A DNA stretch of 64,000 nt from Anaerolineales bacterium. GTDB lineage: Bacteria; Chloroflexota; Anaerolineae; Anaerolineales; UBA6663. A program made the translations under genes and the position numbers. Each line of letters opens with the position of its first letter. Within the stretch, counting starts at the first letter, position 1. The notes under the pieces are model-generated. The model searched no databases. It was not told the DNA's origin and saw only the letters and a program-made list of their open reading frames with translations. Of this stretch, positions 1,063 to 41,827 are shown in pieces. Where the stretch lies: NCBI GenBank assembly GCA_044224715.1, contig JBGAJV010000010.1, positions 13,619 to 77,618 on the forward strand, written 5' to 3'.

Positions 1063-4000
1063 GTGTCCGCCCGCTCCGAAACAACATCCAAAGCGTCAAC
1101 GTGGCTGAGCCGTCTGGATTGGCGCTGGCTCGGCCTGCTGTTGTTTCTGCCCGCGCTCTCGCGCTGGTGGTGGAGCGGCCTGCCGGCCGGCGACGATCAC
1201 TACATTCACGTGTACCGGGCCGTCGAGCTGGATTGGGCGCTCTCGCAGGGCGCCAACTACCCGCGTTGGGCGGCGGACCTCGTGTTCGGGTTCGGGTATC
1301 CGCTGTTCAGCGTCCACGGGCCGGCCGCTCACTATGTGATCGTCGGGCTCCATCGGCTGGGGTTGTCGGTCGTGCAGGCCACGCTGGCGTCGTTTGCGCT
1401 GGCCGACGTGGTCGGCGGCCTCGGCGCGTACACGTTGGGGCGGCGCCTGTTCGGCATCCGCGGCGGCGTGTTGACCGCGCTGGCCGCGGTGTATGCCCCC
1501 TACTCCCTGTTGTTCCTCCAACGCGGCGCGCTGCAGGAGATGTTCGGTCTGGCATTGCTGCCGTGGCTCCTGTGGTCGATCCTCGACCTCTTCGAGCGGC
1601 CGGGCGCCTGGACCGTCGCGCGCACGGCGATCCTCTTTGCTCTATTTCCGTTCACCCACAATCCGTCGACGGCTGTGGCGTCGGCCTGCGCCGTGTTCAT
1701 GATCGTGCTGTTGAGCGTCAACGCGCCGCGCGGCCGACGACTGCGCCCGGCCCTGTTCAGCGCTGGCGCTCTGGCGCTTGGACTGGCGCTCTGCGCCTGG
1801 GTCTGGCTCCCGATCGCGTTCGAGATCAGCGCGATCCACATCGATCGCGCCTATAGCCCGCCGCTGCTCGATTATCACTTTCAATTCGTCCGGATCGGCG
1901 AGTTGTTGACATGGCCAAAAGCGTATGATCCATACCTGTTGAACTTCGCCGTCCCGCATGCGGTGGGCTGGCCGCAGCTCCTCCTCGCGGGGTTGGCCCT
2001 GAGCCGACTGCCCCGTCGGCCCGCCCCACTCCGCTTTCTGTTGATCGCCGCGGCCTTCGCGGCCGTGGCCCTGGCCGCGCTCACGCTGCCCGACTCGGTC
2101 TGGATCTGGGATCATCTACCCGGGCTGCGTCTGATCCAGTTTCCATGGCGACTGCTGGGTCCCGGAAGTTTGCTGCTCGCGGTCGTGTGCGGAAGTCTGG
2201 TCGCCGACTCCCCGTCTTCGGTTCGGCCAAACCCGCGCTCCGCGTGGGTCATCGTCGCCGCCGCCGCGGCGCTGACGGTGTACGGTTTGCCCTGGACGTA
2301 CGTCCCGCTGGATCCGAGCGTGTCGGCCAACCCATCGCTGATCGAGATCCAGGATCGCGAGCGCCGAACCCTCACGATCGGAACGACCACGGCCGGCGAG
2401 TATCTCCCGATCTGGGTGCAACAACTGCCCGATGCGACGACCCTGCAGGCCGCCTACGCCGCCGGCGGACCGATCAAGCGGTTGGATCGTGCGTCGCTGC
2501 CCGCGACGACCCTGGTCGTGTCCGAAGAGGCGGCCTACACGCGCCAGCAGGTCGTGCTTGATAGCCCCGTGGCCTTCACGGCCGTGTTCAACGTCTTCTA
2601 CTATCCCGGCTGGTGGGCGACCGTCAACGGCGTCGACGTCGCGCTCACGCCGACGACGCCGACCGGCCTGATCAGCCTGCCGGTCCCGGCCGGACGATCG
2701 ACGATCGTGCTCGACTTCGGGTCGACCGCGCCGCGCGACGTTGGCGGCGCGATCACGGCCGTCAGCCTGTTAGCGTGGTTGGCGCTCGCCGTCCGCGGCC
2801 TGGCGTCGGGTCGAAGCCGGCCGATCTCCAAAGACCCCGACGGCGTAACGCTGCCGGCGTGGGGCTGGGCCGCGGCCGCCGCCGTCGCACTGGCCGTCCT
2901 GGGCCTGCGCGCCGTGAGCCAAACCGTCGACACACCGTTCGTGCGGCTGCGCGCGCCGGACGGCGCGGCGCCATCGGCCCAGCAGCCGACAGTCCTCGAC
3001 TTCGGCGAAGCGCTCCGGCTCAGCGGGTTCACGGCGAGCACCAGCACGGTCGCGGCCGACCAGCCGCTCGAGCTTACGTTGTACTGGCGGCCGATCCTGC
3101 CGGAGCGCGACGACTACAGCGTACAGGTCACCCTGCGCGACGCGGCCGGCGCGTTCTTCGCCCAGTCTGACACGCAGAACCCGGGCAATCGCCCGACCCG
3201 GCTCTGGCCGTTCGAAAGTTACGCGGCGGATGCACACACCCTGAAGCCGTATGCGGCGACGCCGCCCGGCACATACGCCATCATGGCCATGGTGTATCGC
3301 CAGAAGGACGGCCAACCGGTCAGCGGCCCGACGCAGATCGGCACAGTGACGGTCACGTGCCCGACCCAGGCACAGATCGACACACGACGGCAGTCGCTCG
3401 ACATCGCGTTCGGCCCCATCGATTTGACCCAGGTCGACGCACCGGCGACGACAGCGGGCGTCGGCGATCTGTTGCGTGTCACGGCCTACTGGGACGCGCG
3501 CCAACAGACCGATGTGGATCTGCTGGCGCGCATCCGGCTGCTCGACGCGCAGGGGCGCGTGCTGACCAGCGCCGACCTGCCGCCCGTGCGCGCCGACTAC
3601 CCCACCAGCGCATGGGAGCCCGGCTGCCCGGTTCGCGGCGCGCTCGGGCTGCGAGTCCCGGCCGATGCGGCCACCGGCCGCTACACCGTCGACATCCAAT
3701 TGACACAGGGCGACACGGTCCTGAACACGCCGGTGGTCGTCGGGAGCGTGGACGTGCGCGCGCCCGACCGGACCTTCGACGCGATGCCGGTCGATCACGC
3801 CGTCGGGGCCCGGTTCGGCGACGTGGCGGAGCTCGTCGGATGGACCGAGTCGGAGGGGGTCTTGAGCCTTGTCTGGCACGCGCTCGGAGCATCGGAGCGG
3901 CCCCTCGTCGTGTTCGTCCACGCGCTCGACGACTCAGACGCCATCATCGGCCAGGTCGACGCACAGCCCGTGGGCGGCGCGCGACCCACGACGTCGTGGT

Positions 4001-4143
4001 TGGCCGGTGAGTTCATCCGTGACCCATATCGACTGCCCCTATCGACGACGCCTGTCCGCTACCGCGTCGGCCTCTACGACGCGGACACCGGCGCCCGCCT
4101 GACGACGACGTCCGGCGAGGACTTCGTCATCCTGATGCCGTAA
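1063..4143 (+). CDS. Large polytopic membrane protein, YfhO/PTPS-related-like (GT-C-like) N-terminal region plus three C-terminal repeat modules
   Basis: Part of ORF 547..4143. I place the start at GTG 1063 because the upstream extension overlaps cysS, the cysS terminator and the TATAAT. The N-terminus has many TM helices and the loop GDDHYIHVYRAVELDWAL..YPRWAADLVFGFGYPLF. A YfhO-like YYPGWWATVNG segment follows. Three ~120 aa repeats occupy about 2986-4140. Confidence 0.8.
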   Translation: MSARSETTSKASTWLSRLDWRWLGLLLFLPALSRWWWSGLPAGDDHYIHVYRAVELDWALSQGANYPRWAADLVFGFGYPLFSVHGPAAHYVIVGLHRLGLSVVQATLASFALADVVGGLGAYTLGRRLFGIRGGVLTALAAVYAPYSLLFLQRGALQEMFGLALLPWLLWSILDLFERPGAWTVARTAILFALFPFTHNPSTAVASACAVFMIVLLSVNAPRGRRLRPALFSAGALALGLALCAWVWLPIAFEISAIHIDRAYSPPLLDYHFQFVRIGELLTWPKAYDPYLLNFAVPHAVGWPQLLLAGLALSRLPRRPAPLRFLLIAAAFAAVALAALTLPDSVWIWDHLPGLRLIQFPWRLLGPGSLLLAVVCGSLVADSPSSVRPNPRSAWVIVAAAAALTVYGLPWTYVPLDPSVSANPSLIEIQDRERRTLTIGTTTAGEYLPIWVQQLPDATTLQAAYAAGGPIKRLDRASLPATTLVVSEEAAYTRQQVVLDSPVAFTAVFNVFYYPGWWATVNGVDVALTPTTPTGLISLPVPAGRSTIVLDFGSTAPRDVGGAITAVSLLAWLALAVRGLASGRSRPISKDPDGVTLPAWGWAAAAAVALAVLGLRAVSQTVDTPFVRLRAPDGAAPSAQQPTVLDFGEALRLSGFTASTSTVAADQPLELTLYWRPILPERDDYSVQVTLRDAAGAFFAQSDTQNPGNRPTRLWPFESYAADAHTLKPYAATPPGTYAIMAMVYRQKDGQPVSGPTQIGTVTVTCPTQAQIDTRRQSLDIAFGPIDLTQVDAPATTAGVGDLLRVTAYWDARQQTDVDLLARIRLLDAQGRVLTSADLPPVRADYPTSAWEPGCPVRGALGLRVPADAATGRYTVDIQLTQGDTVLNTPVVVGSVDVRAPDRTFDAMPVDHAVGARFGDVAELVGWTESEGVLSLVWHALGASERPLVVFVHALDDSDAIIGQVDAQPVGGARPTTSWLAGEFIRDPYRLPLSTTPVRYRVGLYDADTGARLTTTSGEDFVILMP

Positions 4144-4153
4144 GCGCCGTCGC

Positions 4154-4159
4154 TATAAT
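4154..4159 (+). promoter_or_regulatory. -10 element TATAAT, 6 nt upstream of GTG 4166 (leaderless architecture)
   Basis: ccgtCGCTATAATC, with the same spacing and context as 1051-1056. Confidence 0.55.
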
Positions 4160-4165
4160 CCCGTT

Positions 4166-7100
4166 GTGGCTGTGAGCAAGATCCCGGATCCATCGTCCAA
4201 TGGTCGCGCGTCGTCGCGTTCCACCTGGTTATGGCTGGCGCTTGCGCTGCTATTGCCCGCGCTCTCGCGCTGGTGGCTGCCCGCGCTGCCCGGCGGCCCC
4301 GATCAGGCCGTCCATGTCTTTCGCGCGGTCGAGCTCGATTGGGCGCTGGCGAACGGCGAGTGGTATCCGCGTTGGGCCGCGGACCTCGTCTTCGGGTTCG
4401 GCTACCCCGTCTTCAACGTCTACGGGCCCGGCGCTCAATATGTGATCGTCGGTTTGCACCACCTCGGGCTGTCGTTCGTCGCGGCGACGTTGGCGGCCTT
4501 TATGCTGGCCGACGTCTTGGGCGCGACTGGCGCCTTCGCCCTGGGGCGTGCGCTGTTCGGAGATCGCGGCGGCGTGCTAACCGCGCTGGCCTACGCGTAC
4601 TCGCCGTACGTCCTGATGTCACTGCATCGGGGCGCCCTGCCCGAGGCGTTTGGGCTCGGGCTGCTGCCCTGGTTACTGTGGTCGATCTGGCATCTGCATC
4701 GAGCACCTGACGCCTGGGCCCTGGCGCGCACGGCGTTGTTGCTCGCGATCTTTCCATTCGTCCACAACCCGTCGACGGCGCTGGCCGGCGGATGCGCCGT
4801 CGCGCTGACCATCGCCCTGAGCGTCGCGACGCCCGCTGGCCAACGCTGGCGATCCGCCGCAGCCTGCCTCGGCGCGTTGGCGCTTGGGCTTGTCGTCTCG
4901 GCCTGGTATTGGGCGCCGGTCGTCGGCGAGATCGGCGCGATCCAGATCGCGAGGGCCTACAGTCCACCGGTCCTCGACTACCACTACCACTTCCTGCAAC
5001 TGACCGAGGTTTTCACCTGGCCGCAGCCCTTTGACCGTCACCTGATCGGTGGCGAAACGCCGCGCGCCCTGGGATGGCCACAGGTGGCTTTGGCGCTCGT
5101 CGCTCTGACGACCGTGTCGCGCGCCTCGGGTCGGCAGAGAGCCGCGCTGATCGCGGCGGCCTTCGGCGCGATCCTCCTCACCGGCCTGACCCTGCCGATC
5201 GCGGTCACGGTCTGGGAACGCCTGCCTGGGTTGAGCCTGATCCAGTTCCCGGTACGGCTGCTTGGCCCGGCGAGCCTGCTCCTGGGTCTGCTGGTCGGTC
5301 TGCTCGGCGCGGATCCCGCCTCGAACGGTCCACGCCACGCGACGCCCTGGCTGCTGCCGCTGGCGGCGCTGGGCGTGATCGTGTATGCCCTGCCCTGGAC
5401 CTACGTCGGCCTCGATCCAAGCGTCGCGGAAAACCCGACGCTTGTCGACATTCAAGACTGGGAGCGCCGCACAGGCACCATCGGCACGACGACAGCCGGC
5501 GAGTATCTGCCGATCGGTGTTCAGGCACTGCCGAACGCCGATCGATTGAGCGCGGCCTACGCCACTGGCGCCCCGATCCGACGGCTTGATCCGGCCACGC
5601 TGCCGCCGGGCGCGCGCGTGCTCGCCGAGGACGCCGGATACACGCGCCAGCACGTCGTGATCGACAGCCCAATCGCCTTCGACGCCGTGTTCAACGTGTT
5701 CAACTATCCGGGCTGGCGCGCGACGGTCAACGGCGCCGACGTGGCGCTCGGCACGACCACGCCGGAGGGCCTGATCCGCGTGCCCGTCAGCGCCGGCCGC
5801 AGCGACGTCGTGCTGGACTTTGGCACGACGCCTGTCCGCCAGGTCGGCGGCGCTCTGTCGATAGCCGGGCTGGCCCTTGCGGTCGGGCTGGCGGCGTGGG
5901 GTCGGCGGCGGCGACCGGCGACGCTTCAGACAGCGGGCGTGGGCGGGTCTGTCTGGCTGTGGCCAAGCCTGGGCGCGATCGGCGTCGGGCTGGTCGTGGC
6001 GCGATTACTGACTCTCACTACCGACACGCCCTTCGCGCGCAGCCGTCTGGTCGATGGCGCCGTGCAAGGCCTGCCGCCGCTCAACCTCGACTTAGGCGCC
6101 GCCTTCCGTCTGATCGGGTTGGAGCAAGACGCCACCACGATCCCGGCGGACTCGACGCTCGTGGTCAGCCTGTATTGGCGCGCGTTGATGTCGAGCGCCG
6201 AGGACTACAGCGTGCAGCTCAGTCTGCGCGACGACGCTGGCCGCTTCTTCGGCCAATCCGATTCGCAGAACCCGGCCGGGTTCCCGACCTCGCGCTGGCA
6301 GCTTGATAGCTACGCGCGCGACGTGCATGCGCTCACGCCCTATCCCGGCACGCCGCCGGGCACCTATCGATTGGCCACGACGGTCTACCGTCAGAGCGAC
6401 GGCGTGCCGCTCACCGCACCAATCACCATCGGGTCGGTCGCCGTCACGTGTCCGCGGGTCGCGCCGCGCCTCGAACCCGTGACGACGCTCGACGCGGACT
6501 TCGGCGCGATCACGTTGCGCGGCGTGGATTGGGTGACGGCCGAGGCCGGTGCCGGCGACCGGCTCGGTTTCACCGTGTACTGGGAGCTCGTGGACCAACC
6601 GACCGTCGCGGCGCTGGCGCGCGTGCGGCTCGTCGATGCCGTCGGGGCAATCGCCGTCGAGCAAGAGCTGGCGCCCGTGCGGGACGATTACCCGACGACC
6701 GACTGGCGCCCGGGCTGCCCGCTGCGCGCGCCGCTGGCCCTGCGCCTCCCGGCCGACCTCACCGCCGGCGACTACCGTGTCGAGATCCAGTTGCGCGCCG
6801 CCGGGTCCCCGTTGGGCGACTTCGCGACGCTCGGCCGCGCCCGGGTGACGGCGCCCGCGAGACGCTTCGACGCGCCTTCGGTCGGTCATGCCGTCGGCGC
6901 ACGTTTCGGCGACGTGGCCGAACTCGTCGGCTGGTCAGCCGCCGAGGGCGGGATCGAGCTGGTGTGGAAGTCGCTTGGGGACACCGACGTCAGCTATACG
7001 GTGTTCGCGCACGCCCTGGCGCCCGACGACACGATCCTCAGCCAGAGCGATTCACCGCCGCTGGCCGGCCAACGGCCGACCACCTCCTGGGTGTCGGGCG

Positions 7101-7234
7101 AGTACGTGATCGACGAGCACCCGCTCGCATCCGTCGCGACTTCGCCTCGATACCGCATCGGCCTGTACGATCCGATCACGGGCGCGCGTCTCGTCACATC
7201 CGACGGCGCCGACTTCGTGATCCTGGAGCCGTGA
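4166..7234 (+). CDS. Large polytopic membrane protein, tandem paralog of 1063..4143
   Basis: 1022 aa ORF, collinear with the upstream gene (roughly two thirds identical by eye). It has the same PRWAADLVFGFGYPVF loop, a NYPGWRATVNG segment and three C-terminal repeat modules (about 6090-7231). Confidence 0.85.
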   Translation: MAVSKIPDPSSNGRASSRSTWLWLALALLLPALSRWWLPALPGGPDQAVHVFRAVELDWALANGEWYPRWAADLVFGFGYPVFNVYGPGAQYVIVGLHHLGLSFVAATLAAFMLADVLGATGAFALGRALFGDRGGVLTALAYAYSPYVLMSLHRGALPEAFGLGLLPWLLWSIWHLHRAPDAWALARTALLLAIFPFVHNPSTALAGGCAVALTIALSVATPAGQRWRSAAACLGALALGLVVSAWYWAPVVGEIGAIQIARAYSPPVLDYHYHFLQLTEVFTWPQPFDRHLIGGETPRALGWPQVALALVALTTVSRASGRQRAALIAAAFGAILLTGLTLPIAVTVWERLPGLSLIQFPVRLLGPASLLLGLLVGLLGADPASNGPRHATPWLLPLAALGVIVYALPWTYVGLDPSVAENPTLVDIQDWERRTGTIGTTTAGEYLPIGVQALPNADRLSAAYATGAPIRRLDPATLPPGARVLAEDAGYTRQHVVIDSPIAFDAVFNVFNYPGWRATVNGADVALGTTTPEGLIRVPVSAGRSDVVLDFGTTPVRQVGGALSIAGLALAVGLAAWGRRRRPATLQTAGVGGSVWLWPSLGAIGVGLVVARLLTLTTDTPFARSRLVDGAVQGLPPLNLDLGAAFRLIGLEQDATTIPADSTLVVSLYWRALMSSAEDYSVQLSLRDDAGRFFGQSDSQNPAGFPTSRWQLDSYARDVHALTPYPGTPPGTYRLATTVYRQSDGVPLTAPITIGSVAVTCPRVAPRLEPVTTLDADFGAITLRGVDWVTAEAGAGDRLGFTVYWELVDQPTVAALARVRLVDAVGAIAVEQELAPVRDDYPTTDWRPGCPLRAPLALRLPADLTAGDYRVEIQLRAAGSPLGDFATLGRARVTAPARRFDAPSVGHAVGARFGDVAELVGWSAAEGGIELVWKSLGDTDVSYTVFAHALAPDDTILSQSDSPPLAGQRPTTSWVSGEYVIDEHPLASVATSPRYRIGLYDPITGARLVTSDGADFVILEP

Positions 7235-7263: not shown

Positions 7264-9042
7264 CTAACGCCTCAGGCTCGGCAACCACAGCCGGTCGATC
7301 TGCGACCAGACCGCGACCGACACCGGGGTCCAGATGCCGGTGTTGGCGACGTTGACGGCAGCAGCGCCGGGTGTCGACACGTCGCCGGCGTTCAGCGTCG
7401 CGCGCAACGTCGCGGAATCGACGACGGTCGTCGTGCGCGGCTGGCCGTTCCAGGTGACCGCGCTGCTCGCCGTGAACCCGGCGCCGTGCACGGTCACGAT
7501 CGTGTCGCCGGGTCCAAACGCGGAAGGCGTCACGGTCAGGCCAAGCTCGATCGCGCCGCTTTCGCAGCCCGGGCCCTGCGGACGCGCGAGGCCGCGCTGA
7601 TCGGTCGCCGGGCAGTTGGCGCCGGCGTTCAAGGCAGGGCTGTTCGGCGCCGGCTGCAGGCCAGGCACTGGGCCGGCCGTCCAACCGCCGAGCAGCGGAT
7701 CCGCGATGGTGAGCGACGCGGCGCAATTGGTCTCGTTCCAGTAATTCTGATTGGGGTTGCGGTTCGGGTACTGCAGCGTGCCGCCCAGGTTGGTGAGCGC
7801 CGACGTGCAGTGCTGTTGGATGGCCCAGGGGTTTCCGCCGGTGTTGGCGCTGAACAGCACGTTGCGCAGCGTCAGGGCATCTCCGGCGATGGCGCCGCCG
7901 TTGAACCCGGCCACGTTGTTGGCAAACGTCACATTGACGACGCTGATGGGCGGCTCGCCGCCGAGCAGACTCTCGGCGAACGCGCCGCCGTTGCCGCGTC
8001 GCCAGTCGTCGGCTGCCAGCGCCGCCGGGTTGACGGCGTCGTTGGCGTAGAACGTCACGTTGGTCAGGTTCGCCGAAGCGTCGACCCACACCGCCCCGCC
8101 CTGCGTGTCGGCGTGGTTGCGCAGGAACGCGAGGTTGGTGAGCGTGAGCGGCGGCGTCGCCTGACCCGGATTTCCGCGCCCGAACCAGATGCCGCCGCCC
8201 GTCCCGGCCGCGCCCTGCGTGTTGACGGTTGCGCGATTGCCGTCGAACGTGCTCGCATCGACCGTGACCGACTCGTTGGCGTATACGCCGATGAAGATCG
8301 CGCCGCCGTGATTGTTTGTGAGGTTCCCGGTGAAGGTGTTGCCCTGGAGCAACACCGTGCTGGACTTGGAGAACGAGTTCGCGCCGTCGATATACACGGC
8401 GCCGCCGCCACCGCAGTCGCCCTGAGCGTCGATGTTAGCCGTATGGATCGCCTGATTGCCCGTGAACGTGCTGGACTGAATGGTCAGATCGGTGCGCAGG
8501 CTGTTGATCGCGCCGCCGTTGTTGGCGCGATTGCCGACGAAGACGCTGTCGACCACGGTCGCCGTGCTGCCCCCACCGATGAAGAGCGCGCCGCCTCCGT
8601 CGCAGGTGTTCGCGTCCCGGAGCGCGACGTTGTGGCTGAACATCACCGTGTCGATCGTCAGTGTGTTGTAGAAGCCGACTTTGAACCCGGCGCCCTGATC
8701 CGCGCTGCGGCCGTCGCGCAACGTCAGGTTGCGCAACGTGATGGTGAGGTTGTTATTGCTGATCAGCAGACCCGTGGCGCTGTTGCCCGACAACGTGATC
8801 ACGCCGCCACCGTCGAGGGTCGTGTTTGTCGTGAACGTGATGGGGGCGGCGAGCGTGATCGTCGCCGGGCCACCGCAGTTGAACGTGATCAGGCCGCCCG
8901 CCGTGATGGCCGCGCGCAGGCCGGCCTCCGTGCACGTGGTGACGACGCCGGCGGCGCGGACCGTGATCGGTTTGAGCGTGGCCGCCGTCAGAGCCACGCC
9001 CAAAAGCAGCGAACCCAGGTGTCCAGATAACGAGTTTGGCAT
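7264..9042 (-). CDS. Secreted right-handed beta-helix repeat protein (PMP-like GGAI repeats) with C-terminal IPT/TIG-like domain
   Basis: Start set at ATG 9042 (MPNSLSGHLGSLLLGVALTAATL, signal-peptide-like). It has repeated GGA(I/V/F) ... F.GN motifs, a DQRGLARPQGPGCESGAIEL motif (choice-of-anchor-Q-like), and a terminal TVHGAGFT..VTWNG..T beta-sandwich. Confidence 0.75.
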   Translation of the reverse strand: MPNSLSGHLGSLLLGVALTAATLKPITVRAAGVVTTCTEAGLRAAITAGGLITFNCGGPATITLAAPITFTTNTTLDGGGVITLSGNSATGLLISNNNLTITLRNLTLRDGRSADQGAGFKVGFYNTLTIDTVMFSHNVALRDANTCDGGGALFIGGGSTATVVDSVFVGNRANNGGAINSLRTDLTIQSSTFTGNQAIHTANIDAQGDCGGGGAVYIDGANSFSKSSTVLLQGNTFTGNLTNNHGGAIFIGVYANESVTVDASTFDGNRATVNTQGAAGTGGGIWFGRGNPGQATPPLTLTNLAFLRNHADTQGGAVWVDASANLTNVTFYANDAVNPAALAADDWRRGNGGAFAESLLGGEPPISVVNVTFANNVAGFNGGAIAGDALTLRNVLFSANTGGNPWAIQQHCTSALTNLGGTLQYPNRNPNQNYWNETNCAASLTIADPLLGGWTAGPVPGLQPAPNSPALNAGANCPATDQRGLARPQGPGCESGAIELGLTVTPSAFGPGDTIVTVHGAGFTASSAVTWNGQPRTTTVVDSATLRATLNAGDVSTPGAAAVNVANTGIWTPVSVAVWSQIDRLWLPSLRR

Positions 9043-9260
9043 GGCGCGATCGTACGCGCAGACCGGATCCGCGGCCATGCGAAAAACCGTTGAGATTGGT
9101 TCCGCACGGCGCGGGCCGAGCGCCGACACCCGCTATACTTGGGCCACGCGTGCCCCTTGTCGATGCCCAAAAGAGTTTCGACAGGGAGCGGAGACCCTTG
9201 CGCTCGGAACCGTCCTTCCCGACCGTCCGGGTCCGCCGCCGGACACACGCGCTCGCCTCT

Positions 9261-11369
9261 ATGGCCAAATCATTCAGTCGGTCCGCCGGCCCCGCATCGA
9301 ACGGTGCCGGCTCTCTCCGCGTCTTCTGGCAGGATCACAAGGCGTTCTTCGCGCTTGCCGCGGTCTTTGCCATGGCCCGCCTCCTGGCGGCGTTCTACCT
9401 CAGGCCCGGTGGATACATCGTGGACCGGTCGCCGGATAGCTGGACCTACCTCGATATGCTCCGGCTCAATTACGGCGGGCTGGCGCCATACCGCGATTAC
9501 TGGTTGGAGTATCCCCCCATACTGCCCTGGCTCTTGCAGGTCGTCGGCGCCCTGGCGTTGAAGATCCCGGCCTGGGACTCTCAAATCCTCGTACCCAACT
9601 TCCTGCTCCGAGTAGCGCTCGCCGTCTTCGACGTCGGCAATCTCGGGCTGATGTACGCCACAGCGCGCCGCGTTTGGGGGCCGACCAACGGATTGCTGAC
9701 TGCCATGGCCTGGGCGCTGGCATTCACGCCGCTGGTGACGTATTTGGGTTGGTACGACCCGTTAGCCCTTTTCTTTCTCCTGCTGGCGGTTTATGCCTGC
9801 GTTGTCGACCGCGCCACAGTCGCCGGCCTGGCCATGGGCATCGGCTTCTGCGTCAAAGTCTTCCCGGCTGTTCTGATCCCATTGGCGGTGCTGAGTTTGC
9901 CGACCTGGCGGAGGCGCCTATGGGCGGTCGGCGTGGCAGGCGCGGCGGTACTGGCCGTGTTCGGTCCGCTTTGGCTGTCGTCGCCGGCCTACGTCAGCGC
10001 GTGGTTCATCAATCTGTTTGGGCGCGGCGGGTGGGAGACCATCTGGGCCTTGCTGGACGGCTACGCCGGGTACGGCGTCGTCGCGCCGCTGCAGGTGCGC
10101 AACGACCCCGCGGCGGCGTCCGCTGCGGAAGTAGCCAGCCGCTGGCCCGGCCTCTGGATCACGCTGGCCATGGCGATCGGGTATCTGACGGTCGCCACAC
10201 GCCGCATCGACTGGTCCAGGCTGGAGACGCGGCTGTGGTTCGCGTTGTTCTCGCTGGGAACGTTTCTGCTTGTCAGCAAGGGCTATAGCCCGCAGTGGAA
10301 CACGTACATCGTCGCGCTCACGGTGCTGGCGCTTCCGTTTCGCTCCGGGATCCCTTACATTCTGGTGTTGGATCTCTTGCTCATGCTCGAGTTTCCGGTC
10401 GCGATCATCCTCTACCGGGACGACGCGCAGGTCATCTCCGCGGTCATCGTGCTACGCACGGCCGTCTTCGCCCTGATCACGCTGGAGGCGGCGGCCCGGG
10501 TTTGGCCGAGGGCGACCCGTCTGACGCAGGAAGTCAGCCGATGGGCGATGCCGGTCGCCGTGATCGGTGTGGCATCCATCGGACTGTTCGCCCTGCCCGA
10601 GCTGTGGCGCCGATACTATGTGGCCCGTTTGGACGTTGAACCGCTCAAGCCGCTTGTGGAACAACTGGCGCAGGACCCACAACCGCCCGACCTGATCATC
10701 ACCCAACCCCGGATGGTCGAGCGATTGGAGCCGTTCGTGGAAGACGGACTGATCGACTATCTGCCAAACGGCCAGCAGGCGCCCTGGCGCGACGTTTCCC
10801 AGTGGATGCAGACCGAGCTGGCTCGCGGCGACCGGTTCTGGCTCGTCTTTGCCGCCGATGGTAACGTACCCGAGGAGATCGCGCTTCACGAGCAGGTGCT
10901 GGCCCAGATCGAATCGTGGGGATGCCCGGCGACACGGACGTGGTACGGTTCGGTCCAGGCCAGCCTCTATGTCGAGCAAACGGGCGCGGCGCCCGCACAG
11001 GCCGGTGGCGGGTTCGAGAACGGCGCCAGCCTGCGCTCGATCGTCGTGCCGGCGCAGGGTCTTGCCGACGGGCGATCGGCCTGCATCACCTTGACCTGGT
11101 CGACCACGGCCCCGCTCGATCGCGACTACACGATCTTCGTGCATGTGTTGGATGCCCGAGGACAATTGGTCGCCCAAAGCGATCTTGCCCCCGACGTCGG
11201 CACGTCGGGCTGGACGGTCGACGAAGACGTCGTGACGCGCCACGGCCTGGTCATCTCGCCCGTGGCCGACGCCAGTCGTTTGACGTTGGCCGTCGGGCTG
11301 TACGACCCGGTGACGGGCGAGCGTCTCGCCACGTCGACCGGCGCTGACGCCATCCGCATCACACCCTGA
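9261..11369 (+). CDS. Polytopic membrane protein, DUF2029/GT87-like (GT-C-like), with one C-terminal repeat module
   Basis: Part of ORF 9036..11369. ATG 9261 gives MAKSFSRS..FFALAAVFAMARLL. An alternative in-frame GTG lies at 9150, 10 nt after TATACT (9134-9139). The loop DSWTYLDMLRL..APYRDYWLEYPPILPW and many TM helices are present. The C-terminus DYTIFVHVLDARGQLVAQSD...VGLYDPVTGERL (about 11012-11366) matches the module in the other paralogs. Confidence 0.7.
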   Translation: MAKSFSRSAGPASNGAGSLRVFWQDHKAFFALAAVFAMARLLAAFYLRPGGYIVDRSPDSWTYLDMLRLNYGGLAPYRDYWLEYPPILPWLLQVVGALALKIPAWDSQILVPNFLLRVALAVFDVGNLGLMYATARRVWGPTNGLLTAMAWALAFTPLVTYLGWYDPLALFFLLLAVYACVVDRATVAGLAMGIGFCVKVFPAVLIPLAVLSLPTWRRRLWAVGVAGAAVLAVFGPLWLSSPAYVSAWFINLFGRGGWETIWALLDGYAGYGVVAPLQVRNDPAAASAAEVASRWPGLWITLAMAIGYLTVATRRIDWSRLETRLWFALFSLGTFLLVSKGYSPQWNTYIVALTVLALPFRSGIPYILVLDLLLMLEFPVAIILYRDDAQVISAVIVLRTAVFALITLEAAARVWPRATRLTQEVSRWAMPVAVIGVASIGLFALPELWRRYYVARLDVEPLKPLVEQLAQDPQPPDLIITQPRMVERLEPFVEDGLIDYLPNGQQAPWRDVSQWMQTELARGDRFWLVFAADGNVPEEIALHEQVLAQIESWGCPATRTWYGSVQASLYVEQTGAAPAQAGGGFENGASLRSIVVPAQGLADGRSACITLTWSTTAPLDRDYTIFVHVLDARGQLVAQSDLAPDVGTSGWTVDEDVVTRHGLVISPVADASRLTLAVGLYDPVTGERLATSTGADAIRITP

Positions 11370-11391: not shown

Positions 11392-12144
11392 GTGCCACAC
11401 GAAATCCTCTTCAAACGCAACGCCATTCGCGAATGCCTGCGCGCCGGGCGCCGCCGCGCCTATCGGCTGATCGTCGCCCGCGACGCCGATCTGCGCGACG
11501 CGCAGGACTTGATCGCCGAGGCCCAGCGGCGCGGCGTTCGCATCGAGGACAGCGACAAGAAAAGCGTGAACCTGCTGGTCCACGGCGAGCGCCATCAGAA
11601 CCTCGTACTCGAGGTCGGGTCATACCCGTACGCGGACCTCGAGGACATCTTCGCGGCCGCCGAGCGGGCCAACGAAGCGCCGCTGATCCTGCTGCTTGAC
11701 CTCGTGCAGGACCCACGGAACGTCGGTGCCATCCTGCGCACGGCCGATGCCATGGGCGTGCACGGCGTCATCATCCAGGAGCGGCGCGGGTGCGAGATCA
11801 CGCCGACCGTGGTCAACACGGCGGCGGGCGGCGCCGAGCACCTTCAAGTGGCCCAGGTGACCAACCTGGCCGACGCCATGCGCCGCCTGAGCGACCGTGA
11901 CGTGTGGCTCGCAGGCCTCGATCTTGCCCCCGACAGCCAGCCGATCGATCGCGTCGACCTTGACCGCCCTCTCGGCCTGGTGATCGGCAACGAGGGCAGC
12001 GGCCTGCGCCGCCTGGTGCGGGATCGCTGCGATTTCCTGCTGCACCTGCCCATGGTCGGGCATGTGCAATCGCTCAACGCCGCCGTGGCGGCTTCACTCG
12101 CGCTTTACGCGGCTCGGACAGCCCGGCCCAAACGCCAGAAGTAG
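11392..12144 (+). CDS. rlmB: SpoU/TrmH-family RNA 2'-O-methyltransferase, RlmB-like
   Basis: 250 aa with an N-terminal substrate-binding-like region, then LDLVQDPRNVGAILRTA and GNEGSGLR motifs and the C-terminal SLNAAVA knot region. Confidence 0.75.
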   Translation: MPHEILFKRNAIRECLRAGRRRAYRLIVARDADLRDAQDLIAEAQRRGVRIEDSDKKSVNLLVHGERHQNLVLEVGSYPYADLEDIFAAAERANEAPLILLLDLVQDPRNVGAILRTADAMGVHGVIIQERRGCEITPTVVNTAAGGAEHLQVAQVTNLADAMRRLSDRDVWLAGLDLAPDSQPIDRVDLDRPLGLVIGNEGSGLRRLVRDRCDFLLHLPMVGHVQSLNAAVAASLALYAARTARPKRQK

Positions 12145-12220: not shown

Positions 12221-12289
12221 CGGCGAATTTAGACGCTTCAACCCTCGCAAACTGTGCGCGACGGCGAAACGCTGTACAATCGCGCCGCC

Positions 12290-13375
12290 ATGACAGACGT
12301 CGCCCCTGACCCGCTTTTGGGCTTCGTCGAGGCCGTCCAGGCCCGAGCCAACGCGTACCTCTCCGTGCGGCCCGACCAGTACGAGCAACTCGATCACTTG
12401 CGTCACGTCTCCAACCGGGCGCACTGGCTCTACTACAACGAACTGGTGCGCGCCACCCCGCCCGGCGCGCCCGTGTTGATGTCGCGGCGTGAGAGCCTGC
12501 TGCTCGATGCCTGCACCTTCAGCCACGACCTGGGCAAATGGATCCCGCGCGACGACCTGGCGACGTTGCTGCCGCAGGCCGTCACCCCGGCGCAGGCGCA
12601 GTCGGCCTTCCGTGATCGCGCCCGGACGCTGCTCGGGCTGAGCGAGTATCAGCTGGATCTGCTCTGGCTGGGGTTGCGGCGCCGGTTGGATCCGGATATG
12701 GATGCGTACTCGGCGGTGTACGACGCGGCCCATCACCTGGTCAGCGCCTACATCGTCGTGGCCGATCCCACGCTCGGTTTCGCCGCCCTCGCCCGCGAAG
12801 ATCAGTTCGAGGTGTTGACGACCGTGATCGGGCACCAGTTCGGCGCGTATTACAAACGCACGCTCTTCGAGCTCAGTCTGCGCGACCCCGACATCACCCC
12901 GGGTCTGCTGGTCGACATTTCGCGGCCTGACAAGATCGTGGGTCTGCGCCTCCCGGCCAGTTTCCACGACGCCGACATCAACGACATGCTCTACGTCGGC
13001 AGCCTGGAGCGGCGGCCTTATCGCGAGGATCTGCTGCACGCCGGCGGCCTGATCAAGATCTTTCTGATCAACCTGACGCTCCTGGTCCACGGCGTGCCAA
13101 ATGGCCCGCGCGATCTCTACGATTGCGTCAACTCGTGCGAGGGCACGGTGCAGGCCGTGATCAGCGAGTTCCTGACCCCGACCGCGCGCTCCGAGGGGCA
13201 GGCCATGCGCGAGCGCGCCACCCTGTTCCTCGACATGCTGCGCGACAACGACACGGCCACGGGCTACATCCGACTCATCCAAGATTCGACGCGCCCGCCG
13301 GCCGACCGCCTCACGGCGCTGCGCACCCTCACCCACAGCAAGGCGCGCGAGTTCCTGCGCCAACATCGAGACTAG
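12290..13375 (+). CDS. HD-domain-like hypothetical protein
   Basis: Part of ORF 12254..13375. ATG 12290 lies 9 nt after TACAAT (12275-12280). The CTFSHDLGKW motif is HD-like, and further His motifs occur (AAHHLV, VIGHQFG). G/C is strongly favoured at third codon positions in this frame. Confidence 0.6.
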   Translation: MTDVAPDPLLGFVEAVQARANAYLSVRPDQYEQLDHLRHVSNRAHWLYYNELVRATPPGAPVLMSRRESLLLDACTFSHDLGKWIPRDDLATLLPQAVTPAQAQSAFRDRARTLLGLSEYQLDLLWLGLRRRLDPDMDAYSAVYDAAHHLVSAYIVVADPTLGFAALAREDQFEVLTTVIGHQFGAYYKRTLFELSLRDPDITPGLLVDISRPDKIVGLRLPASFHDADINDMLYVGSLERRPYREDLLHAGGLIKIFLINLTLLVHGVPNGPRDLYDCVNSCEGTVQAVISEFLTPTARSEGQAMRERATLFLDMLRDNDTATGYIRLIQDSTRPPADRLTALRTLTHSKAREFLRQHRD

Positions 13376-13436: not shown

Positions 13437-14978
<1,542 letters not shown>

Positions 14979-15017
14979 GAGCGATCCTGGTTCCGCATTA
15001 CGGATGAGATACGGCGG

Positions 15018-15023
15018 ATTATA
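15018..15023 (-). promoter_or_regulatory. -10 element TATAAT (minus strand) for the carboxyltransferase gene
   Basis: The reverse complement reads ggTATAATCc, about 40 nt upstream of ATG 14978. Confidence 0.45.
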
Positions 15024-15132
15024 CCGGGCCGTTGGGGGAGTCTCAGGGCAAACGCAACTCGAGTAGAACGCCTCGCGTTTTGCCACGACAGGGCCGCGGT
15101 GGTACGAACGAACCCGGAGGAAGCCGGGCCGT

Positions 15133-19207: not shown

Positions 19208-19233
19208 CGCTCAAGACCTGAAGGGAACCATCC

Positions 19234-39859: not shown

Positions 39860-39935
39860 CCGCCTCGTGCACACGCCAACTGCTGCGACCAGTAGGCACG
39901 ATCACGGGCGCCGCGAAGGCCCAGGACATCGCCCG

Positions 39936-39941
39936 CTATAA
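39936..39941 (+). promoter_or_regulatory. -10 element TATAAT upstream of the membrane-protein gene
   Basis: cccgCTATAATCgtg, the same context as 1051 and 4154. ATG 39962 lies about 14 nt downstream of the expected transcription start site. Confidence 0.5.
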
Positions 39942-39961
39942 TCGTGAGGCAGTTTCACCCC

Positions 39962-41827
39962 ATGTCGACTTCCCCGTTGCCTCAGACCCAAGCGACCGCC
40001 TCGCCACCGACCTGGCGCGCCTGGGCGTTCCGTCTCGCACCGCTGGCGGCGCTGTTGCTCATGGCCGTGTGGGCCTGGCGCGTGTGGGATCCTGTCCATC
40101 AGTTGCCCAACGACCCGGGCCGCAGCCCGATGGGCTACGGCGACGTGCTCGAGGTCACCTGGGGCCTCCAGTGGTATTACGACGCGCTCATCCTGCGCGC
40201 GCATCCGCTCGACGTCTACCCCGGCATCTTCGCGCCCGACGGCTGGCAAGTCGGCACGCTCGCGCACGGCCCCGGGCTCTTCATCGCCTTCATGCCGTTT
40301 GTGTCAATCGGCGGCCCGGCGCTGGCTTATACGCTCAGCCTGTGGGTAGCCTTCGCGCTGACGTACTTCGGCACCTATCGTCTCGCCAGACGCTTCGTCG
40401 ATCGGCCGTGGGCCATCGCCGTCGCCCTGTTCGTCACGTTTTGGGGCTACCGGTGGATGCGCCTCGGCGGCCAGCCCAATATCCTGCTCGGCGCCGGACT
40501 GTTGCCGTGGTTGATCGAGTGCTTCGAACGCGGGCGCTCGACCGGCCCGCGCGCCTGGGTGTGGGCCGTGTTCGGCGGCCTGCTCTGGGGCTATGCCGTC
40601 ACGTGTTCGTTGTACTTCGCCTGGCTTGGCGCTGTCACGCTCGGCGCCTGGGTGCTCGGCGTCGTGCTGAGCCGGAGCGATGACCGCGGCCAACTCGTGC
40701 GCGCCTTTGCGCTCATGGACGTGGTCGCGTTTGCGGTCAGCCTGCCGTACCTGCTCTGGTTTCAGGCCGCTTCGTCGCAGGCCGGCGCCGCGACCTTCGA
40801 TCTGGCGCAGCTCTCCGGCTGGGGCGCGAGCGTCAACGCCATGCTCGTCCCGTTCGCGCGGCATCCGCTCGAACTGGCACGCTCGCTCAACACGTGGGCC
40901 TATCACGGGGCGCCAAGCGAGTCGGGCACGCTCAGCCTTGGGCCCGTCGCCTTCGGGCTTGGTCTGGTTGGATTCGCCCTGGCGCGGCGCGAGCGGAACT
41001 GGTGGCCGGTGTGCGCGTTGACGTTCGTCGGGATGGCGCTCTCACTCGGACCGTATCTGCGTTGGGATGATCAGCTGATTCAGATCGAACATCCGGTTGT
41101 GCGCATGCTTAACACCGCGATCTGGACCGTGGGGCACGCCGTCAAGCCGGGGCTCTTTGCCGAGACGGCGCCACCCGACGTCTACGCCCGCGCGATCCCG
41201 TTGCCCGCGATCGTGCCGCTGATGTTCGTGCCCTATTGGGAGGGCGCGCGGATCTCGGCGCGCTATGCGCTGGTCGGCGGCATCGGCCTGTACCTGCTGG
41301 CCGTCTGGGCCGCGACCCGCAGCCGCCGGCGGTGGCTGACCGGGGTTCTGATCGTCGCGTTGGCGATCGAGTGGTGGCCGGCGCCGACGTACGGCGTGCC
41401 CTACCCGCTCACGCCCCATCCGGTCTTCGCCTGGGTCAGCGCCAACACGGCCCCCGACGCGGTCGTGGCGGACCTCTTCGCCGCGACCGGCGATCACGTC
41501 GAGCTGCGCATCAAACCGCAAACGCTGACCGCCACGTTGTTTCATGGCCGCGCCGCGCTTTCGGGAACAAGCAGCGTCCTCCCGGCCCATGCCGCCGACT
41601 GGCAGGCCTGGCTGGCGGCGCATCCGACCCCGTTCGCCGATCCGGGCTTTGCGGATCGGTTGCGCGCGGATCATGTCGGCGTGATCCTGATCCATGTGGT
41701 CAATCCGCAGTCGCAGGCCCTGGCCGATTCGGTTGCGGCCGACCCGGCCTGGCACTTCGTCGACTGCGTCGACCCGACGACCGAGCTCTCTCCCTGGCCA
41801 TATCCGATCTGCATCGTGACGCCCTGA
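39962..41827 (+). CDS. Polytopic membrane protein, possibly GT-C-like (family unclear)
   Basis: 621 aa from ATG 39962. The first loop is GYGDVLEVTWGLQWYYDAL..YPGIFAPDGW, with about 12 TM helices and a soluble C-terminal domain. Confidence 0.6.
   Translation: MSTSPLPQTQATASPPTWRAWAFRLAPLAALLLMAVWAWRVWDPVHQLPNDPGRSPMGYGDVLEVTWGLQWYYDALILRAHPLDVYPGIFAPDGWQVGTLAHGPGLFIAFMPFVSIGGPALAYTLSLWVAFALTYFGTYRLARRFVDRPWAIAVALFVTFWGYRWMRLGGQPNILLGAGLLPWLIECFERGRSTGPRAWVWAVFGGLLWGYAVTCSLYFAWLGAVTLGAWVLGVVLSRSDDRGQLVRAFALMDVVAFAVSLPYLLWFQAASSQAGAATFDLAQLSGWGASVNAMLVPFARHPLELARSLNTWAYHGAPSESGTLSLGPVAFGLGLVGFALARRERNWWPVCALTFVGMALSLGPYLRWDDQLIQIEHPVVRMLNTAIWTVGHAVKPGLFAETAPPDVYARAIPLPAIVPLMFVPYWEGARISARYALVGGIGLYLLAVWAATRSRRRWLTGVLIVALAIEWWPAPTYGVPYPLTPHPVFAWVSANTAPDAVVADLFAATGDHVELRIKPQTLTATLFHGRAALSGTSSVLPAHAADWQAWLAAHPTPFADPGFADRLRADHVGVILIHVVNPQSQALADSVAADPAWHFVDCVDPTTELSPWPYPICIVTP

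Follow-up and report, generated by a model that had tools for sequence, protein, structure and literature searches.

What are eight genes for polytopic membrane proteins resembling GT-C glycosyltransferases doing among the translation genes of an uncultured Anaerolineales bacterium (Chloroflexota)? We addressed this in a 64-kb stretch of its DNA (here, the window), where these genes span 40.8 kb (ca. 41 kb); such a set amid essential translation operons offers a concrete way into the question of how the outer layers of these bacteria, still poorly understood, are built. The original prediction, made from the letters of the DNA, saw there a multi-enzyme envelope or protein glycosylation capacity, with eight genes of several GT-C-like families. 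All eight proved to be real ORFs at or near the predicted positions, with gene-like GC by codon position (GC3 of 0.80 to 0.88), and a Kyte-Doolittle scan gave from 5 (GTC8) to 11 hydrophobic helices per protein.

1063 to 4143, forward strand: GTC1, PTPS_related-like GT-C with three C-terminal Ig-like repeats (PTPS_related, 21.3 bits, below the 26.4 cut-off)
4166 to 7234, forward strand: GTC2, PTPS_related GT-C with three C-terminal Ig-like repeats (PF10131, 31.0 bits, cut-off 26.4)
9261 to 11369, forward strand: GTC3, GT87 (PimE/DUF2029-like) GT-C (PF09594, 27.6 bits, cut-off 25)
16562 to 19075, reverse strand: GTC4, PMT_2/ArnT-like GT-C (PMT_2, 20.5 bits, below the cut-off)
21928 to 25002, forward strand: GTC5, PTPS_related GT-C with C-terminal Ig-like repeats (PF10131, 36.5 bits)
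26501 to 28738, forward strand: GTC6, YfhO-like GT-C (PF09586, 41.6 bits, cut-off 28.5)
28735 to 30636, forward strand: GTC7, PMT_2 GT-C with the DE motif RGDEAF (PF13231, 56.2 bits, cut-off 26.1)
39962 to 41827, forward strand: GTC8, small unclassified GT-C family, a remote relative of YfhO

Five of the eight score above the Pfam gathering cut-offs (PTPS_related twice, GT87, YfhO, and PMT_2), and all of them belong to the GT-C superfamily, as judged from HMMs of the single protein or of its family, from profile-profile comparison, or from the predicted fold. The three genes expected to be YfhO/PTPS-related-like paralogs behaved as such: GTC2 and GTC5 pass PTPS_related, and GTC1, a diverged tandem duplicate of GTC2, shares 55% identity with it across ca. 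1,000 amino acids. GTC2 has orthologues at 59 to 63% identity in three related loci (L008, L009, and L010), while GTC5, between gatA/LysE and gatB, shares 27% identity with GTC1 and GTC2 and 54 to 59% with its orthologues in relatives. The assignments of the genes at 9261 (DUF2029/GT87-like) and 26501 (YfhO-like) were borne out by their Pfam cut-offs; PF09594 aligned over model positions 19 to 236 of 237 in GTC3, and the YfhO alignment was limited to the C-terminal 62 aa of GTC6, whose large loop ahead of the last TM helix is the YfhO layout. Both genes taken as ArnT/PMT-like carry the DE loop (FSDEAS in GTC4) and reach PMT_2, GTC7 directly and GTC4 through its family of 1,338 representatives, where 29 of 38 sampled members match (best E value, 2e-20) and the D/E of the motif is invariant. 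GTC4 also has a 165-aa cytoplasmic N-terminal extension and an unclassified C-terminal domain of its own.

Some of these proteins, the PTPS_related trio and GTC8 especially, could instead be scaffolds, transporters, or polymerases, given that PF10131 is annotated as of unknown function (PMC7801869) and that only nine homologues of GTC8 were found. However, PF10131 is a member of the Pfam GT-C clan CL0111, and each of the eight proteins has an acidic motif (DE, GDxxE, or DxxxH) in the loop behind its first TM helix, the site of the catalytic residues in GT-C enzymes. GTC8, the relative left unclassified by the original prediction, indeed has no Pfam or NCBIfam match. In its family, YGDxxE after TM1 is invariant, and the AlphaFold (AF2) model of GTC8 (pTM 0.80) gave a Foldseek probability of 1.0 to STT3, AftA, AglB, DPY19, and ArnT; GT-C enzymes alone reached this value, and transporters stayed below 0.25. 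Together with the hhalign probability of 96.5% between its family profile and the GTC6 family, the model predicts a GT-C fold of the STT3/AftA/ArnT kind and a remote kinship with the YfhO-like GTC6. A role other than glycosyl transfer is thus highly improbable.

The translation genes named in the original prediction, cysS, rlmB (SpoU), gatC, gatA, and gatB, are all Pfam-backed; they and two other neighbors are the following.

2 to 790, forward strand: 3' end of cysS, cysteinyl-tRNA synthetase (Pfam tRNA-synt_1e, DALR_2, and CysS_C)
7264 to 9129, reverse strand: PMP-repeat/TIG-domain protein, secreted or membrane anchored (Pfam Chlam_PMP and TIG)
11392 to 12144, forward strand: rlmB-type SpoU rRNA methyltransferase (Pfam SpoU_methylase and SpoU_sub_bind)
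19222 to 21222, forward strand: gatC and gatA (Pfam GatC and Amidase)
21257 to 21886, forward strand: LysE-type translocator between gatA and GTC5 (Pfam LysE)
25059 to 26504, forward strand: gatB (Pfam GatB_N and GatB_Yqey)

The interleaving with cysS, rlmB, and gatCAB recurs in relatives, and the gene order including them is kept in five or more assemblies of related Anaerolineales (synteny in L003/L008, L005, L009, L010, L026, and L028 to L030, the last three covering the GTC8 neighborhood). It runs cysS, PTPS-type GT-C, PMP/TIG protein, rlmB, ..., GT2, GTC4, gatC, gatA, and then LysE, GTC5, gatB, GTC6, GTC7, GNAT, C39-like, and BTAD regulator. The GT-C genes are therefore not scattered at random among related Anaerolineales, although this synteny is shallow, with housekeeping proteins 82 to 98% identical among the relatives. 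Identities are 82 to 86% for the proteins at the cysS position in L008 to L011, 75 to 77% for the PMP/TIG protein (one N-terminal TM helix, adjoining GTC2) in L008 to L010, and 86 to 92% for LysE, whose position is conserved. Two of the eight genes, the GTC1 duplicate and GTC3, are specific to the window and absent from relatives, which carry one GTC1/GTC2-type copy; GTC3 is missing between the PMP/TIG protein and rlmB in L008 to L010, and the slot between cysS and GTC2 varies: L008, L009, and L011 have a GT1 gene there, L010 leaves it empty, and the window fills it with GTC1. Growth of the set would come from duplication on the spot (GTC1) and from insertion (GTC3). We read these genes as residents of ancestral cysS-rlmB and gatCAB operons, vertically inherited in the clade, rather than as a mobile polysaccharide island.

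Gene order kept among close relatives alone is expected from vertical inheritance and does not prove co-function. The eight genes might form no functional unit and serve separate pathways; Chloroflexota genomes would simply be rich in GT-C paralogs, which build up wherever an insertion is tolerated, and the position among translation genes would be neutral and due to descent. The confinement of synteny to close relatives fits such an account, as do the variable cysS-GTC2 slot and the window-specific GTC3; in distant Chloroflexota, multi-GT-C clusters are kept but away from gat or cysS genes. Against it, ca. 19.9 kb of the 40.8-kb span, about half, is GT-C coding, and Pfam detects no GT-C gene in the other 22 kb of the window. 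Furthermore, 4-nt overlaps (ATGA) join the gatB stop to the GTC6 start and the GTC6 stop to the GTC7 start, and GT2 overlaps the stop of GTC4 by 29 nt; all three are conserved in three genomes (the window, L003, and L005), which implies co-expression. Multi-GT-C arrays also recur across the phylum, and one Ig-like module is shared by three GT-C families of this locus (see below). Independent pathways are a possible, if rather doubtful, explanation.

Two further genes bear on the sugar donor.

15817 to 16590, reverse strand: GT2, polyprenyl-phosphate glycosyltransferase-like, without TM helices (Pfam Glycos_transf_2)
15133 to 15537, reverse strand: 134-aa protein with ca. four TM helices, downstream of GT2 (ORF)

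As predicted, GT2 is the only lipid-donor-type enzyme nearby, and Pfam finds no sugar-nucleotide pathway genes in the window. Its closest solved relatives are ArnC (2.7e-15), Pyrococcus furiosus DPMS (4.8e-8), and GtrB sll0501 (7e-6), all polyprenyl-phosphate sugar synthases, and by sequence it is most similar to such donor synthases; in relatives it is 86% identical. One GT2 for eight GT-Cs means that other donors are made elsewhere or that the eight are not one pathway, and the single donor synthase is a further point for independent pathways. The absence of a visible flippase stands insofar as the 4-TM protein matched no flippase family, no Pfam or NCBIfam model, and no GtrA domain, but the statement needs softening, since this protein adjoins GT2 and a gene of 132 to 134 aa is called in the corresponding position in L003 and L005. 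In sequence the protein is poorly conserved, at 47 to 59% identity. It may be a flippase or a membrane anchor for the TM-less GT2.

The reading we favor, and consider probable, is that the region encodes one half of a capacity for envelope glycosylation, the membrane-bound, extracytoplasmic half that depends on polyprenyl-phosphate sugars, in keeping with the original prediction. The soluble GT2 would work at the cytoplasmic face and charge polyprenyl phosphate with a sugar taken from a nucleotide sugar, as ArnC, DPMS, and GtrB do; the lipid-linked sugar would move to the outer leaflet, with the 4-TM protein as the sole local carrier candidate; and the GT-C set (three PTPS_related, two PMT_2/ArnT, one GT87/PimE, one YfhO, and one new YfhO-related type) would pass it to acceptors outside the membrane.

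A clue to these acceptors may come from an undescribed Ig-like beta-sandwich of ca. 100 residues that ends five of the eight GT-C proteins, in one to three copies each and across three GT-C families, with 11 copies in total: GTC1 (nt 2905 to 3351, 3403 to 3747, and 3757 to 4131), GTC2 (6017 to 6451, 6473 to 6850, and 6866 to 7225), GTC3 (a single domain, 10953 to 11360), GTC5 (best-scoring copy, 24598 to 24990), and GTC7 (one domain, 30199 to 30624). The module has no Pfam or NCBIfam match, and Trp and Tyr are near-invariant in it. Its AF2 model, a beta-sandwich with a pLDDT of 92, came closest in structure to Ig-like domains from GH2 glycosidases (TM score, 0.64 to 0.66); the Wzt carbohydrate-binding domain gave 0.52, and no defined CBM was matched significantly (best Foldseek E value, 0.01). 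Because it follows a TM hairpin with an RRRR-rich connecting loop in the family consensus, the module should lie outside the membrane. GT-C clusters across the Chloroflexota carry it as well, and L027 has five consecutive module-bearing ORFs. An Ig-like CBM on a GT-C enzyme that binds the acceptor glycan has a precedent (PMC11127046), and by analogy with the CBMs of EmbC, AftD, and GT136 we infer that the extracytoplasmic module grips a polymeric acceptor; it could also serve as a spacer or bind proteins. On this inference, envelope polysaccharide or lipoglycan would be favored over proteins as the main acceptor.

Alternatively, the enzymes might chiefly glycosylate secreted or surface proteins, as in PMT-like O-glycosylation, with the neighboring PMP-repeat/TIG protein, a secreted and conserved companion of GTC2, as one possible target; the Ig-like domains would then recognize protein substrates. 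GTC4 and GTC7 are of the PMT_2 type with a DE motif typical of protein O-mannosyltransferases, and bacterial GT39/PMT enzymes do glycosylate proteins (PMC11727336 and PMC6151902). However, PMT_2 also takes in ArnT-type enzymes that modify lipids and glycans, and in Pfam no protein of the set reached the PMT family proper (PF02366). Characterized YfhO members act on teichoic acids, and characterized GT87 members (PimE) on glycolipids or lipoglycans. Moreover, the distant Chloroflexota homologues adjoin polyprenyl synthase, GT2, GT4, and Wzy_C genes, a polysaccharide context. We consider proteins unlikely to be the principal acceptors.

Envelope glycosylation of the kind we favor resembles several known systems in part. 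Gram-positive bacteria have operon pairs of GT-A and GT-C enzymes with a 4-TM GtrA-type protein (PMC5836110), and with CsbB/YfhO/GtcA, which glycosylates LTA/WTA (PMC5836110 and PMC8035078), the window shares a GT2-type synthase adjoining and overlapping a GT-C, a small 4-TM protein nearby, an extracytoplasmic GT-C step, and in GTC6 a YfhO-type enzyme whose last TM helix is preceded by the large loop. In contrast, it sets a single GT2 against eight GT-Cs from four or more families, the two TM helices that CsbB and GtrB have at the C-terminus are missing from its GT2, its 4-TM protein lacks a GtrA domain, and teichoic acid genes are not evident. The mycobacterial and corynebacterial ensembles (EmbA/B/C, AftA-D, MptA-D, and PimE), which build arabinogalactan, LM/LAM, and PIMs, likewise combine many GT-C families in one envelope with polyprenyl-phosphate sugar donors; the window has a GT87/PimE-like member, C-terminal beta-sandwiches comparable to those of EmbC and AftD, and a GTC8 model matching AftA and AftD. 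Those ensembles belong to another phylum with another envelope, and the window lacks DPA genes (ubiA and dprE), its Ig-like module is no recognized CBM, and the GT-Cs tested (GTC3, GTC4, and GTC7) had no sequence match among solved structures. As to the ArnC/ArnT/ArnE-F system for lipid A aminoarabinose, ArnC is the best solved relative of GT2, and GTC4 and GTC7 are PMT_2/ArnT-like with the acidic loop-1 motif, whereas the window has no Ara4N synthesis genes, no SMR-type ArnE/F, and no significant ArnT sequence match; Chloroflexota have no LPS pathway (PMC13319060). In actinobacterial Ppm1/Pmt protein O-mannosylation, a TM-less GT2 synthase depends on a partner in the membrane, and a GT-C with the DE motif works outside it, but the window proteins miss the PMT model, there is no Lnt/Ppm2-like partner, and protein acceptors are putative. 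The GT136 pentofuranose system (PMC11127046) follows the same logic of lipid-donor synthase, flippase, and GT-C, and its GT-C, like five of those in the window, ends in an Ig-like module, which in GT136 binds the acceptor polysaccharide; it differs in its PRPP-dependent synthase, MATE flippase, single GT-C, and O-antigen locus.

Expression of the GT-C genes would rely on their own leaderless-type promoters or on translational coupling to gatB. One motif occurs three times in the 64 kb, versus 0.10 expected.

1049 to 1056, forward strand: GCTATAAT -10 box, 6 nt upstream of the GTC1 GTG
4152 to 4159, forward strand: GCTATAAT -10 box, 6 nt upstream of the GTC2 GTG
39935 to 39942, forward strand: third GCTATAAT box, ca. 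20 nt upstream of the GTC8 ATG

The arrangement GCTATAAT-N6-GTG before GTC1 and GTC2 is predicted to be a leaderless-type promoter, and GTCGCTATAAT-N6-GTG also precedes the GTC2 orthologue in L008, L009, and L011; the box before GTC8 is not conserved among the L028 to L030 orthologues. TATAAT lies 23 nt upstream of the GTC4 ATG, a promoter-like TTGACG-17-TACAAT precedes gatC/gatA at 19179 to 19207, and gatB in the window genome has its own leaderless-type start, TACAAT-N6-ATG.

Gene order was derived from Pfam scans of the window, which has a G+C content of 66 to 71%, and codon-position GC was used to sort out the numerous spurious ORFs that overlap real genes. The eight GT-C-like polytopic membrane genes, numbered GTC1 to GTC8 in map order, and their neighbors are arranged as follows.

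Gene map of the window, with the strand where called
2-790, 3' end of cysS
1063-4143, GTC1
4166-7234, GTC2
7264-9129, minus strand, PMP-repeat/TIG protein
9261-11369, GTC3
11392-12144, rlmB-type SpoU methylase
12254-13375, plus strand, 373-aa protein with two hydrophobic segments and no Pfam match
13437-15086, minus strand, carboxyltransferase ORF
15133-15537, minus strand, 134-aa protein with about four transmembrane (TM) helices (4-TM protein)
15817-16590, minus strand, GT2, the predicted donor synthase
16562-19075, minus strand, GTC4
between GTC4 and LysE, gatC and gatA
21257-21886, LysE
21928-25002, GTC5
25059-26504, gatB
26501-28738, GTC6
28735-30636, GTC7
after GTC7, GNAT, C39-like peptidase (minus strand), BTAD/AAA/TPR regulator, YceI, and glyoxalase
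before GTC8, AhpC and ADH (both minus strand)
39962-41827, GTC8
final 22 kb, VanZ-like gene, two-component system, LysM protein, DnaE-type polymerase, protoglobin-MCP, AddAB-type nucleases, and URO-D-like gene

The carboxyltransferase ORF is probably too long as annotated; the protein seems to be shorter and to begin at an in-frame ATG at 14978 (MDSISKL...), given the TATAAT at 15023-15018. The 373-aa protein, 88 to 93% identical in relatives, is among the most conserved of the region.

The original prediction took all eight genes for GT-Cs, and this held, since HMM searches did not place most of them outside GT-C families. Five of the eight passed a Pfam gathering cut-off, and PF10131, GT87, and PMT_2 belong to the Pfam GT-C clan (PMC7801869); the family census of GTC4 and the predicted fold of GTC8 (see below) point the same way. 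The five are GTC2, GTC3, GTC5, GTC6, and GTC7; of the other three, GTC1 and GTC4 stayed under the cut-offs and GTC8 matched nothing in Pfam or NCBIfam. GTC2 and GTC5 matched PTPS_related (PF10131) with 31.0 and 36.5 bits (cut-off, 26.4). GTC1 reached only 21.3 bits with this model but is 55% identical to GTC2 across ca. 1,000 residues, while GTC5 shares 27% identity with each of them. The match of GTC3 to GT87 (PF09594; PimE/DUF2029) was marginal, at 27.6 bits against a cut-off of 25 (model positions 19 to 236 of 237), and phmmer found no match between GTC3 and the solved PimE. GTC6 scored 41.6 bits with YfhO (PF09586; cut-off, 28.5), the aligned residues being only 651 to 712, at the model end; the large loop that precedes its final TM helix agrees with the layout described for YfhO. 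GTC7 was a clear PMT_2 member (PF13231; 56.2 bits versus 26.1).

GTC4 reached 20.5 to 20.9 bits with PMT_2, under the same cut-off. Because hhalign, with profiles of three sequences only, gave no similarity between GTC4 and GTC7, a Pfam census was run at the family level. An exhaustive phmmer search recovered 1,338 cluster representatives, of which 462 had an E value of ≤1e-30. PMT_2 was matched by 29 of the 38 sampled members (best E value, 2e-20), and a D-E pair past TM1 is invariant in the 38-member alignment, which places GTC4 in a large PMT_2-related family, although it is itself under the cut-off. Searches of PDB sequences by phmmer or profile gave nothing significant for GTC3, GTC4, GTC7, or the GTC4 family. 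Many members of the family (P0075 to P0077, P0079, P0086, P0088, and P0090) are 1,300 to 1,680 aa long, with an extra N-terminal region of ca. 640 to 990 aa ahead of the GTC4-like part that had no Pfam match in the three scanned. The C-terminal 279 aa of GTC4 itself (16565-17401, minus strand) are soluble, 78% identical to the orthologue in the related locus L003, without Pfam match, and unlike the C-terminal module of the other GT-Cs described below.

The topology was judged to agree with the 8 to 13 TM helices of GT-C enzymes: a Kyte-Doolittle scan, which is crude and gives approximate counts, found 7 to 11 hydrophobic helices in GTC1 to GTC7 and 5 in GTC8, and the AlphaFold2 model of GTC8 has ca. 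12 long helices. The first extracytoplasmic loop carries a putatively catalytic acidic motif, DXD-type or modified: FSDEAS in GTC4, RGDEAF in GTC7, GDFTE in GTC6, YGDVLE in GTC8, and D-x3-H ... ELD/LLD in GTC1, GTC2, and GTC5. Only nine homologues of GTC8 were detectable, and in all of them YGDxxE directly past TM1 is invariant. Fold comparison with solved GT-C enzymes covers GTC8 alone among the eight. Its model (pLDDT, 76; pTM, 0.80) retrieved only GT-C enzymes at high probability with Foldseek (STT3, AftA, AglB, DPY19, ArnT, and AftD), the first five at probability 1.0, with E values of 5.7e-7 to 6e-4 and TM scores of 0.37 to 0.49. Against the profile of GTC6 orthologues, hhalign gave a probability of 96.5% (E value, 8e-10; 314 columns), by which GTC8 is only a remote relative of the YfhO-type GTC6. 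The distant GTC8 homologues P0041 to P0046 have an extra C-terminal domain of ca. 120 aa (alignment columns 700 to 826; motif GWSxxExWGxWxEG ... LSV), absent from the GTC8 of the window and its close orthologues.

BLAST comparisons among the paralogs revealed a C-terminal segment of ca. 100 residues common to GTC1, GTC2, GTC3, GTC5, and GTC7, that is, to members of three Pfam families. An HMM of this segment detected it three times in each of GTC1, GTC2, and GTC5 (two of the GTC5 copies being weak) and once in GTC3 and in GTC7. The segment had no match in Pfam even at an E value of ≤10, and none in NCBIfam or PDB sequences. Modeled with confidence from a 32-sequence alignment (pLDDT, 92), it forms a beta-sandwich that comes closest to Ig-like domains found in GH2 glycosidases (TM score, 0.64 to 0.66; E value, ca. 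0.01), with the Wzt carbohydrate-binding domain lower (0.52); the fold is therefore Ig-like and not that of a recognized carbohydrate-binding module (CBM). The repeats should face outward, since the TM hairpin that precedes them has an Arg-rich loop. A module of this kind has precedents: in EmbC, AftD, and the GT136 enzyme, Ig-like CBMs bind the acceptor glycan (PMC11127046). In other loci, the HMM matched the C-termini of 37 large ORFs, those of distant Chloroflexota included. A contig from a bioreactor metagenome (L027, 7581-20671) bears five consecutive ORFs of 640 to 820 aa, each with a terminal Ig-like domain; this array, denser than that of the window and without gat genes, adjoins a YfhO-like gene that shares 35% identity with GTC6.

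On the donor side, GT2 encodes a protein of 257 aa without TM helix, the closest solved relatives of which are ArnC (E value, 2.7e-15), Pyrococcus DPMS, and cyanobacterial GtrB, all polyprenyl-phosphate glycosyltransferases; its proximity lends indirect support to the putative use of polyprenyl-phosphate-linked sugars by the GT-Cs. The first 29 nt of the gene are also the last 29 of GTC4, an overlap kept in the related loci L003 and L005, so that, as in Gtr-type systems, a GT2 of the GtrB/ArnC/DPMS type stands beside a GT-C. Directly downstream of GT2 is the 134-aa 4-TM protein, and relatives have an equally sized gene in this position. It matched nothing in Pfam even at an E value of ≤10 and nothing in NCBIfam, and with no family matched it can be put forward only by inference as a candidate flippase or GT2 anchor. 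LysE was not proposed as a flippase, for want of precedent. Neither GtrA (PF04138) nor any other recognized flippase family (Wzx, MATE, or SMR) was found by Pfam in the window. The original view that this is not a classical polysaccharide island was borne out: genes for sugar-nucleotide synthesis, an initiating transferase, Wzx/Wzy, and an ABC exporter were absent by Pfam across the window.

The best-supported reading of these features is a capacity for extracytoplasmic glycosylation dependent on polyprenyl-phosphate sugars. The mode of working proposed for the locus is that of the CsbB/YfhO/GtcA, Gtr, and ArnC/ArnT systems (PMC5836110); with the three-component Gtr system it shares the GtrB-type GT2 beside a GT-C, but it has no recognized GtrA. 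The expansion, here to eight enzymes of several families, recalls the mycobacterial GT-C ensembles. The kind of system is known; three things about this variant are new, namely how many GT-Cs it has and in what mix, the presence of both an unclassified family and a shared domain not described before, and the embedding in gatCAB and cysS-rlmB.

Relatives of the locus, from Anaerolineales metagenome-assembled genomes, were found by a profile search of contigs with the GTC1/GTC2 alignment (a search with GTC3 alone retrieved none), and synteny was read from tblastn maps and called genes.

Syntenic relatives
JBGAGY010000018 (L003 and L008)
CAYZRP010000057 (L009)
JAEURK010000138 (L010)
JGI metagenome contig (L005)
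WBZS01000725 (L026)
Logan contigs (L028 to L030)

The order kept runs from cysS through one PTPS-type GT-C, PMP/TIG, rlmB, the gene without family assignment, carboxyltransferase, 4-TM protein, GT2, and GTC4 to gatC, gatA, LysE, GTC5, gatB, GTC6, GTC7, GNAT, C39-like, and the BTAD regulator, and on to YceI, glyoxalase, AhpC, ADH, GTC8, VanZ-like, response regulator, and histidine kinase. A GTC5 copy 100% identical to that of the window is present in an NCBI assembly. GTC3 is absent from the relatives, and since these have a single GTC2-type gene, GTC1 is an extra, more diverged copy. Between cysS and the PTPS-type GT-C, the slot of GTC1 in the window, L008 (8618-9868, plus strand), L009, and L011 have a GT1-type glycosyltransferase (EryCIII-like_C plus a Glyco_transf_28 N-terminal domain); what occupies the slot thus varies, and glycosyltransferases accumulate in it.

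Between genomes, housekeeping proteins are mostly 82 to 98% identical and the GT-Cs 54 to 74%. This divergence is spread evenly over catalytic core and Ig-like repeats, for which reason a faster evolution of the repeats, which would have pointed to acceptor diversification, was rejected. Genome-specific homogenization of the domain was also discarded, orthologous copies being 64 to 74% identical versus 35 to 40% between families within the window. In distant Chloroflexota, homologues again lie in multi-GT-C clusters with other genes alongside. In one Caldilineales genome (L006) these are polyprenyl synthase, GT2, GT4, and Wzy_C; a second genome has genes for PMT_2 and an FGE-sulfatase there. 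The neighborhood is thus conserved and not scattered in related Anaerolineales, but only within this clade is it tied to translation genes. A possible explanation is that unrelated GT-Cs gathered here by a neutral process alone. As for the acceptor, protein O-glycosylation by these enzymes is possible; we favor a polymeric envelope glycan, on account of the Ig-like module that several of the enzymes share and of the polysaccharide-type surroundings of the distant homologues.

The -10 box GCTATAAT has three sites in the 64 kb versus 0.1 expected, the third ca. 20 nt before the ATG of GTC8 and the other two as follows.

1049-1056, GCTATAAT -10 box, exactly 6 nt before the GTG start of GTC1
4152-4159, GCTATAAT -10 box, exactly 6 nt before the GTG start of GTC2

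Three other genomes (L008, at about 9885-9892, L009, and L011) keep the arrangement GTCGCTATAAT-N6-GTG at their GTC2 orthologue. With gatB of the window, which has TACAAT-N6-ATG (box at 25047-25052), the boxes at GTC1 and GTC2 suggest that leaderless mRNAs are common in this organism. ATGA overlaps join gatB to GTC6 and GTC6 to GTC7 in the window, L003, and L005. Together, boxes and overlaps would fit leaderless transcripts and GT-C genes whose translation is coupled to that of an essential gene; as an operon design, such a predicted coupling between gatB and two glycosyltransferases is unusual.

In filamentous Chloroflexota, which have no LPS pathway, the envelope is multilayered, and its outer layers, of undefined composition, presumably consist of polysaccharide or protein (PMC13319060). 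With a conserved set of one donor synthase, eight GT-Cs, and a shared extracytoplasmic module, the locus has some value as an entry point to this composition. A speculative extension, which we consider rather unlikely, is that GT-C arrays assemble these outer layers, that at least three families (PTPS_related, GT87, and PMT_2) carry the putative acceptor-binding module because they act on one common polymer, and that the genes are wired into the essential translation operons gatCAB and cysS-rlmB because this polymer is needed for growth. The catalogue of GT-Cs gains two families, one small and unclassified (GTC8) and the other large and related to PMT_2 (GTC4), as well as an Ig-like domain without Pfam or NCBIfam model that marks GT-Cs of several families across the phylum.

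The final 22 kb of the window contain no GT-C gene. There, the ORF at 42215-44473 (752 aa) is improbable as a single gene, its 5' third overlapping the VanZ-like gene at 42188-42910 on the minus strand (PF04892; E value, 2.7e-4). Its 3' part (43070-44470, plus strand; 467 aa, no Pfam match) is an insertion missing in L028 and L030. At 53741-55756 (minus strand), and with no relation to the GT-Cs, a methyl-accepting chemotaxis protein has an N-terminal protoglobin sensor domain.
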